A stretch of 64,000 nucleotides of DNA. It comes from Eledone cirrhosa. Taxonomy: Eukaryota. The DNA lies in NCBI GenBank assembly GCA_964016885.1, contig OZ024741.1, forward strand, positions 370,636,001 to 370,700,000. The letters are read 5' to 3'. Positions 30,196 through 31,540 of this stretch are shown here, piece by piece. Position numbers and translations under genes: made by a program. The first letter of the stretch is position 1. Each line of letters starts with the position of its first letter. The notes beneath the pieces were generated by a model. It was not told where the DNA came from and did no database searches. It was given only the letters and a program-made list of their open reading frames with translations.

Positions 30196-31540
30196 CAATA
30201 TATTTAGAAACACACAGATACATGCGGACACACATATATACATGAATGCATCCACACCCAACCGTGAGTTAAGGGTGCCAACCTCACCGATGTTGCTCAA
30301 TGAATGACTGGGACAGACCAATCCGGTTGAACCAGACTGAACCAGTATCAGAGTTAAAAATACATTATGAAGAGAGAAGGAACATTTAGATATAATTAGT
30401 AATAAAATGTTTCATACCTAAACTGCTCCTAGATTCCTCGACTACGTAGTTTCGTGGCATAAACAAAAACAATACATCATAAAGATATAGAGTCCTTGCG
30501 AGGTCTGCCGACTTATCAAGAGGATACCTCATTTTACTAGATTCAAGAACGCGTCTACACGACGTGAGAAAGAATCCCAAAAGGCGGAGGGGGAGATAGT
30601 CACGCGATATAACGGTCGAGAAACAGAGCTAAGCCTCTTATAACCCCGAAGAAAATACCACAGAGGCGGAGGGGGTATTTATATCGAAGCCGTAGAAGAG
30701 GTGGTGAAGGAGGAGAGAAGTATGTGTAATGGCAGCTTTCCAGCAGTCACCACACTTCAAAGATTACTCGACCAGAGGGAGTTATTAACAATATATTTAG
30801 AAACACACAGATACATGCGGACACACACATATACATGAATGCATCCACACCCAACCGTGAGTTAAGGGTGCCAACCTCACCGATGTTGCTCAATGAATGA
30901 CTGGGACAGACCAATCCGGTTGAACCAGACTGAACCAGTATCAGAGTTAAAAATACATTATGAAGAGAGAAGGAACATGGTTCAACCGGATTGGTCTGTC
31001 CCAGTCATTCATTGAGCAACATCGGTGAGGTTGGCACCCTTAACTCACGGTTGGGTGTGGATGCATTCATGTATATGTGTGTGTCCGCATGTATCTGTGT
31101 GTTTCTAAATATATTGTTAATAACTCCCTCTGGTCGAGTAATCTTTGAAGTGTGGTGACTGCTGGAAAGCTGCCATTACTCATACTTCTCTCCTCCTTCA
31201 CCACCTCTTCTAGGGCTTCGATATAAATACCCCCTCCGCCTCTGTGGTATTTTCTTCGGGGTTATAAGAGGCTTAGCTCTGTTTCTCGACCGTTATATCG
31301 CGTGACAATCTCCCCCTCCGCCTTTTGGGATTCTTTCTCACGTCGTGTAGACGCGTTCTTGAGTCTAGTAAAATGAGGTATCCTCTTGATAAGTCGGCAG
31401 ACCTCGCAAGGACTCTATATCTTTATGATGTATTGTTTTTGTTTATGCCACGAAACTACGTAGTCGAGGAATCTAGGAGCAGTTTAGGTATGATACATTT
31501 TATTACTAATTATATCTAAATGTTCCTTCTCTCTTCATAA
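30196..31540. mobile_element. Retrozyme-like non-coding element: 593-nt unit, 1.3 copies on minus (30196-30978) joined head-to-head to ~0.95 copy on plus (30979-31540)
   Basis: Direct repeat 30196-30385 = 30789-30978 (offset 593); 30979-31540 is the reverse complement; (TA)n at both ends; one HHR per unit. Confidence 0.85.
31381..31470 (+). ncRNA. Type I hammerhead with U3-A8 core and expanded stem II (second copy 30435-30524 -)
   Basis: TCCTC-TTGATAA-GT(c)GGCA...TGCCAC-GAAACTA CG TAGTC^-GAGGA. Confidence 0.8.

Follow-up and report, generated by a model that had tools for sequence, protein, structure and literature searches.

The question raised by positions 30196 to 31540 of our window, a stretch of 64,000 nt from Eledone cirrhosa (assembly GCA_964016885.1, contig OZ024741.1, positions 370,636,001 to 370,700,000 of the forward strand), is what kind of element left two oppositely oriented copies of one unit there, and what RNA was copied to make them. 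The first-pass annotation had described a 593-nt unit inserted as a head-to-head pair in (TA)n, and the tandem and inverted repeats that we found at 99% identity bear this out. The direct repeat (30193-30385 = 30786-30978) has a spacing of 593 and 99% identity, and the inverted arms (30355-30927 and 30978-31550, also 99%) differ by 5 mismatches over about 560 nt. We took the single complete unit, 30386-30978 on the minus strand, as unit positions 1-593. On this scale the minus arm (30193-30978) runs from unit 1 at its 5' end through 593 and then through 1-193, ending at a site that we call B (unit 189-193); its 1.33 units agree with the 1.3 copies first described. The plus arm (30979-31541, 0.95 unit) covers 52-593 and then 1-22, with its 5' end at unit 52-53 and its 3' end at site A (unit 22). 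The two 5' ends meet with a 1-nt overlap at 30976-30981, and both 3' ends reach (TA)n as annotated, on the left at 30148-30194 and on the right at 31540-31672. Site A (31536-31545, plus strand) is a fixed 3' end lying 76 nt downstream of the ribozyme cut, and site B (30193-30202, minus strand) is a fixed 3' end 167 nt past A; both are AU-rich into (TA)n and are putative start sites of a reverse transcriptase (RT). Between them lies a 167-nt tail (30197-30363, minus strand, with a second copy at 30790-30956) containing two predicted hairpin domains that are kept in both retrozyme families described below. The arms do differ in phase, as had been noted, and we explain this by the two fixed 3' start sites combined with random 5' truncation rather than by the free circular permutation first proposed.

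Each arm carries one type I hammerhead with a UUGAUAA core (U3-A8), a palindromic helix III of 10 nt and a long helix II hairpin, at 31381-31470 on the plus strand and in mirror position at 30435-30524 on the minus strand. The predicted cuts fall after 31465, which is unit position 539 and the same position given in the annotation, and after 30440. The statement that every unit contains a hammerhead holds for one motif per arm but not for the partial 0.33-unit repeat, which has none. With one ribozyme per strand the locus would be unable to release a monomer on its own; it is a daughter copy. The description of the hammerhead as fully paired goes too far, because helix II is interrupted by a bulge and by about 50 nt of inserted sequence, and helix III of the monomer consists of 3 bp closed by a 4-nt loop. 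Rfam models at gathering thresholds gave 0 matches in the 64-kb window. The unusual core is a stable property of the family, with U3 in 241/241 and A8 in 242/244 copies, and the letters flanking the cut are kept without gaps in 263/265; core and helices are conserved across about 240-265 unit copies.

The fold was examined for covariation in 35 distinct sequences, 10 from the main family and 25 from a sister family, using a structure drawn from the same sequences. In this set 96.8% of cells were paired with 26 double-sided changes (0/500 shuffles; slid controls 32-60%), and the number of pairs with double changes, 4, was not above shuffles. The covariation supports the ribozyme fold across the two families, at the level of predicted structure. 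Three versions of helix III occur, each a perfect palindrome. Its two innermost pairs covary, yet in a monomer they fall within the loop, and they could form only in a dimer. The calculated energies are -12 to -17 kcal/mol for the helix III self-duplex and +1.5 for the monomer hairpin. This pattern suggests selection for a dimeric ribozyme, as the accessible text of PMC4209133 argues for motifs of Penelope-like elements (PLEs), and such a ribozyme would favor cutting in multimers and spare monomer circles. The minimum-energy fold of the ribozyme (-23.6) differs from the active fold (-15.5), which weighs against the explanation that we prefer below. At one locus (L239:1421-2230) both ribozymes have an identical 22-nt deletion in the helix II hairpin, a pattern that matches nowhere else in the assembly. 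Upstream of the hammerhead, a conserved block with low between-copy variation (31227-31356, plus strand; mirror 30549-30678) includes two motifs that we take to be GC-box-like. Unit positions 301-360 are 86% identical between the two families, and the block may be an internal promoter.

A DNA search of the 3.0-Gb genome returned 1,979 candidates of the unit, of which 40 scored were about 98% identical and included arrays of 4-6 units, so that the multimeric copies anticipated by the annotation do exist. Exact patterns, for which the reversed controls gave 0, counted at least 2,546 A ends genome-wide, a number that is not due to chance; they also matched 4,835 sites at which copies run on through A and, taking this family and its sister together, 7,740 ribozyme motifs. 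The site B pattern was found 513 times on the forward strand, the reverse-strand count being inflated by overlapping hits. The annotation considered the unit non-coding, and no stop-free frame in a natural tandem array is longer than 85 codons. The unit also folds better than its shuffles (z -3.8). The sister family (L193:646-1640; L209-L238) is about 70% identical, has a unit of about 590 nt and yielded 1,792 candidates at 80-90% identity to its own query; it has the same ribozyme core and two ends, and judging from sequence it looks older. Copies of the main family are dispersed over many contigs, are randomly truncated at the 5' end and have no terminal repeats bounding an interior, which fits a non-LTR element. 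At least two same-strand ribozymes, the mark by which we recognize a potentially active copy, occur in 42 of 98 sampled insertions. The family belongs to the metazoan non-LTR retrozymes, as a variant that differs from those described, and carries the integration signature of PLEs in an unusually long and countable form, with its expression, cleavage and circles as predictions. The unit had also been called large. It exceeds the 170-400 nt given in the accessible text of PMC7229834 but falls within the 51-972 bp range of a preprint (bioRxiv 10.64898/2026.07.22.740005, as far as accessible), and this makes the claim a modest one.

The key pattern, which the annotation had overlooked, lies in the ends of the copies. 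Our sample consisted of the first 100 A ends on contig C1, or 98 insertions after the removal of two duplicates. The 3' ends fall at the two fixed sites, 167 nt apart, and the 5' ends are random. Head-to-head pairs make up 62 of the 98 A-anchored insertions (61 plus one, L092, recognized later), and the partner arm ends at site B (186-197) in 59, elsewhere in 3 and at site A in 0. For the 58 pairs counted, the probability under an independent 50:50 choice of arms is 6e-11. Starting from the other end, 16 distinct B-anchored loci gave 12 with an A partner (six of these by coordinate match to A-anchored loci), 4 solo and 0 BB. A further 19 loci chosen by an internal pattern comprised 3 AB, 11 solo B, 3 solo A and 2 irregular insertions. 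Solo A and solo B copies are thus both common, and an independent choice would yield many AA pairs. In the sister family, where loci were classified by eye in a sample biased toward B arms and L235 was left out as a duplicate, 23 of 29 loci were inverted: 19 AB, 1 BB (L224) and 3 other. The rule extends to a coding PLE family of this genome, presumably of the Neptune type from its cysteine linker, in which 17 pairs (from 100 A and 30 B pattern sites on C1, matched by position within 10 kb) were 16 AB, 1 AA and 0 BB. That clade assignment through the cysteine linker also rests on the accessible part of PMC8557442. The exceptions, one BB, one AA and several arms ending elsewhere, weigh against the explanation that we prefer. 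The distance from A to B is 167 nt in the retrozyme and 40-44 nt in two coding PLE families of the genome; a one-sided tail on an inverted, 5'-truncated arm is a Penelope signature, here four to five times longer. In both retrozyme families the tail folds into hairpins with 46 predicted pairs, 4 of which have double-sided changes and one of which is often broken. At the 5' junction (TA)n was also found in 29/36 solo copies, the A ends themselves having been picked on (TA)n. Contigs of X1, a sequencing run of independent format that may come from the source sample, again show both A and B joined to (TA)n. Two other accounts of the ends were set aside: pairing of sites A and B as one helix, which appeared in one linear fold (across 12 units folded as circles the pairing probability never exceeded 0.25 and was mostly close to 0), and L1-style twin priming with the B arm stopping at A, since 42/54 B arms pass A.

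Our main reading, to which we give a probability of about 0.78, is that a non-coding 593-nt family with a predicted hammerhead was copied into (TA)n by a Neptune-type Penelope RT-endonuclease; copying on each cut strand likely began at a different one of two fixed sites, separated by 167 nt, of an RNA that was an uncut multimer or a circle. The annotation had suggested mobilization by a PLE, and the A-with-B rule and the (TA)n target point the same way; the argument proceeds from this insertion anatomy and not from a named partner. A source with at least two same-strand ribozymes would be transcribed, and its ribozymes would pair through the helix III palindrome and cut, after which monomers may be ligated to circles, as the covariation and known retrozymes suggest. 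A PLE protein, probably acting as a dimer on one RNA, would nick both (TA)n strands, with A priming one and B the other, as the fixed ends and the pairing rule indicate. Each RT then runs for a random length, on average about 650 nt, past unit boundaries and the cut site, as the arms show. Repair would presumably join both 5' ends with little or no overlap into a head-to-head pair, or keep a single arm as a solo A or B.

The arms indicate what the template was like. The cut site is crossed in 86/92 A arms and 40/54 B arms, and crossed twice in 37 and 13, respectively. The annotation had supposed a template longer than a unit, and this is supported; arms cross unit boundaries as well as the cut site. 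Only 7/146 5' ends lie near the cut against 4.2 expected, with no peak, and the lengths of A arms (six complex or very short insertions being left out of the arm-length statistics) fit an exponential, that is, a memoryless stop (KS p 0.47, mean 651 nt). An apparent clustering of 5' ends at the cut, with matches from position 544, proved to be an effect of the search window, and sloppy template jumping at the cut is unlikely given that there are no indels there. Since the arms run past the cut without pausing, the template was not a cut linear monomer and was likely an uncut multimer or a circle; we put the circle at slightly better than even odds and regard the multimer as the less probable of the two.

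The most serious rival keeps the same PLE machinery and makes the template always a linear uncut multimer transcribed from rare long arrays, with a ribozyme dispensable for insertion and no circle. We take this seriously without favoring it. Unprocessed RNA is the main in vitro substrate and no reads end at the cut in the available text of PMC11167929, cleavage was seen in 1/9 tested dimer elements in the part of preprint 10.64898/2026.07.22.740005 at hand, and some variants within arrays are only partly shared. The arrays, however, are short, with 8/92 A arms longer than two units and the longest array at about 6 units, and the ratio of passes to A ends (1.9 genome-wide, 2.0 in the first 66 Mb of C1) indicates no large hidden array. 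A lineage copied only from linear RNA would shorten at every round, yet several length variants each form 4-5-mers, and the ribozyme fold is kept with compensation across two families.

Variants shared within insertions bear on whether one molecule was copied; unit positions 140-161 were masked in the distances. Units of one insertion differ by 0.5%, on the same or on opposite arms, and the between-locus median is about 3%. Within-insertion distances (0.5-0.7%) are on average not below those to the nearest other locus (0.4-0.7%), and this equal closeness counts against concluding that a single RNA molecule was the source. Among private variants, absent from the other 121 loci, 27 are common to all overlapping units, 179 are confined to a single unit and 6 are partly shared; 12 of the 27, found in 8 loci, span both arms. 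In some arrays (L149, L152, L153, L177) variants come in blocks or in alternation, being shared by consecutive or by alternate units, which hints at dimer templates or later DNA-level expansion there. Arrays are therefore not always clones of a single monomer, and the partly shared and block variants suit DNA-level expansion or mixed multimer templates and weigh against a circle of one monomer as the sole template. When contigs of 4/6 sequencing runs were compared, all six being without a record as RNA, the family was present in X1 and X4. Close variants of one unit (L022:1790-2400) were also seen at low depth in runs X5 and X6, which have codes of other organisms and where the matches may reflect contamination, diet or relatives. 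Run X5 contains one 621-nt self-closing contig at a depth of 7.8, which we do not count as evidence for a circle because a tandem DNA repeat would also give such a contig.

A second rival, which we judge unlikely but worth weighing, holds that the arms come from two RNAs or events or from fold-back self-priming, the A/B pattern being a by-product of cleavage geometry rather than of one dimer on one RNA. Self-priming has been proposed for inverted PLE junctions (PMC3846280, in the part accessible), two RNAs from one active source would also share variants, and longer arms tend weakly to be paired with shorter ones (rho -0.30, p 0.03). Independent events, on the other hand, should produce AA and BB pairs, and fold-back predicts that both 5' ends lie near one phase; this is seen, within 20 nt, at about 6/54 junctions, the rest being scattered. 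The 54 junctions have an overlap of 1-11 nt in 35 cases, are flush in 9 and contain extra letters in 10. Within our preferred reading of PLE copying from two fixed sites, a more specific version is tentative: a Penelope RT dimer on one circular retrozyme RNA might perform two simultaneous rolling-circle reverse transcriptions, with a folded RNA domain fixing the 167-nt distance between the start sites and a dimer-only ribozyme keeping monomer circles closed. If so, RNA folding rather than a fixed length would determine the PLE tail, and each head-to-head PLE insertion would result from one twin-priming event.

A third rival, that the unit is merely the pLTR of a coding PLE surviving as solo and tandem fragments, is improbable. 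The order of ribozyme, about 80 nt, start site and tail mirrors PLE pLTRs, the preprint 10.64898/2026.07.22.740005, so far as its text is accessible, derives retrozymes from pLTRs, and one locus joins a PLE ORF to the unit. At this locus (L120:1249-3438, minus strand) an ORF fragment coming from (TA)n is joined through a 5-nt overlap to a retrozyme 5' end. It is a single chimera, which may have arisen by template switching or by an insertion accompanied by a deletion, and the pLTR of that PLE family is unrelated to the unit. In arrays of up to about 6 units, head-to-tail units abut without an ORF between them, and in the 98 + 19 insertions there was no recurring junction of an ORF to the unit and no RT + GIY-YIG ORF between units, contrary to what the pLTR reading raised in the annotation would predict. 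The short-helix-II version of the ribozyme was matched at only one retrozyme locus. Among 10,596 GIY-YIG candidates in the genome we examined 70 loci of the 150 listed, in 7 clusters, and found no sequence shared with the unit except in one neighboring retrozyme copy; this absence of a sequence-sharing autonomous partner in the 70 loci weighs against our preferred explanation. Several coding PLEs of the genome insert in (TA)n, and two PLE groups carry U3-A8 cores with a CCGG palindrome. At loci L255, L259, L261, L263 and L265 of coding PLE families these cores and the palindrome lie in the 3' repeats, and from sequence U3-A8 looks common in this genome. The last rival is that recombination or misassembly produced a satellite or palindrome at the DNA level and that the ribozyme is a chance resemblance. 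This fits the microsatellite-rich surroundings and the ability of unequal exchange to grow tandem repeats, but is already largely refuted and highly improbable given the dispersal over many contigs, the fixed 3' and random 5' ends, the recurrence of the junctions in X1 contigs and the covariation.

In the accessible parts of PMC7229834 and preprint 10.64898/2026.07.22.740005, metazoan non-LTR retrozymes resemble our family in being non-coding, low-GC tandem units with one type I hammerhead each, in occurring as dimers to multimers together with PLEs, and in their proposed mobilization by PLEs via circles. Our family differs from those described there in its U3-A8 core, long helix II hairpin and two fixed 3' ends, and in consisting mostly of short dispersed (TA)n insertions, about 60% of the A-anchored ones being head-to-head. 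The word 'inverted' does not occur in the accessible main text of PMC7229834, nor 'tail' in that of the preprint. Plant LTR retrozymes differ from the present type I topology and tandem layout in having type III hammerheads in their LTRs and a 4-bp target duplication. Like PLEs of the Neptune clade and Poseidon PAc (PMC11167929, PMC8557442 and PMC3846280, as far as accessible), our family shows partial tandems, an inverted 5'-truncated arm, a one-ended tail, two internal RT start sites, AT-rich or (TA)n targets and a hammerhead shortly upstream; unlike them it has no ORF, and its tail is 167 nt against 30-40 nt. The hammerheads of Schistosoma Cercyon-related PLEs (PMC4209133, in part) share the U3-A8 covariation, the palindromic helix III and the expected action as dimers, but are minimal and mostly single, whereas here there is a 10-nt palindrome and a motif in every unit of a tandem non-coding family. 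Chlamys non-autonomous elements such as MRC1 (PMC8557442, accessible text) are likewise non-coding PLE dependants with head-to-tail multicopy insertions; they have 3' sequence in common with an autonomous partner and for the most part contain no hammerhead, and no such partner was found here among the loci examined.

In the parts of these sources at hand it is already in print that retrozymes depend on PLEs, that circles are the proposed templates of copies longer than a unit, that PLE ribozymes can have a U3-A8 core, and that PLEs have a one-ended tail of 30-40 nt and two RT start sites. The accessible open-licence literature yielded no retrozyme that has a tail or inverted pairs, no tail of about 170 nt and no counted A-with-B rule, and the origin of inverted and tandem PLE insertions and of the one-sided tail is described as unsolved in the available text of PMC8557442. 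PLE mobilization of retrozymes has so far rested on co-occurrence and pLTR similarity, and in this family a retrozyme bears the integration signature of PLEs, and does so in thousands of copies that are young. It turns the tail on one end into a counted rule that is valid for a coding family too, and stretches the tail four- to five-fold. The available text of PMC11167929 reports PAc in vitro without a strand difference and with uncut RNA used, which counts against our best explanation; set beside the near-obligate A-with-B pairing here, it makes the genomic A/B asymmetry a pointed, testable contrast. The unit would offer the established in vitro PLE assay a small, defined RNA with which to ask whether priming is twinned, whether one or two templates are copied and whether circles are used.

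Other elements lie close to the retrozyme in the window. A broken Neptune-like PLE (33653-39738; RVT_1, GIY-YIG) lies within (TA)n and has 3' copies in both tandem and inverted arrangement; its two ends, one of each kind, are separated by about 44 nt, and its sequence is unrelated to the retrozyme. On the other side, a short remnant (29930-30150) looks, on visual inspection, like the pLTR that the PLE family at L256, L267 and L269 carries, and the retrozyme sits in the (TA)n that ends this remnant, beside a 30-nt inverted repeat. Next to the right (TA)n, 31672-32323 contains a 127-nt direct repeat (spacing 525, 95% identical) with a minus-strand CUGANGA-like motif, and is possibly another small element.
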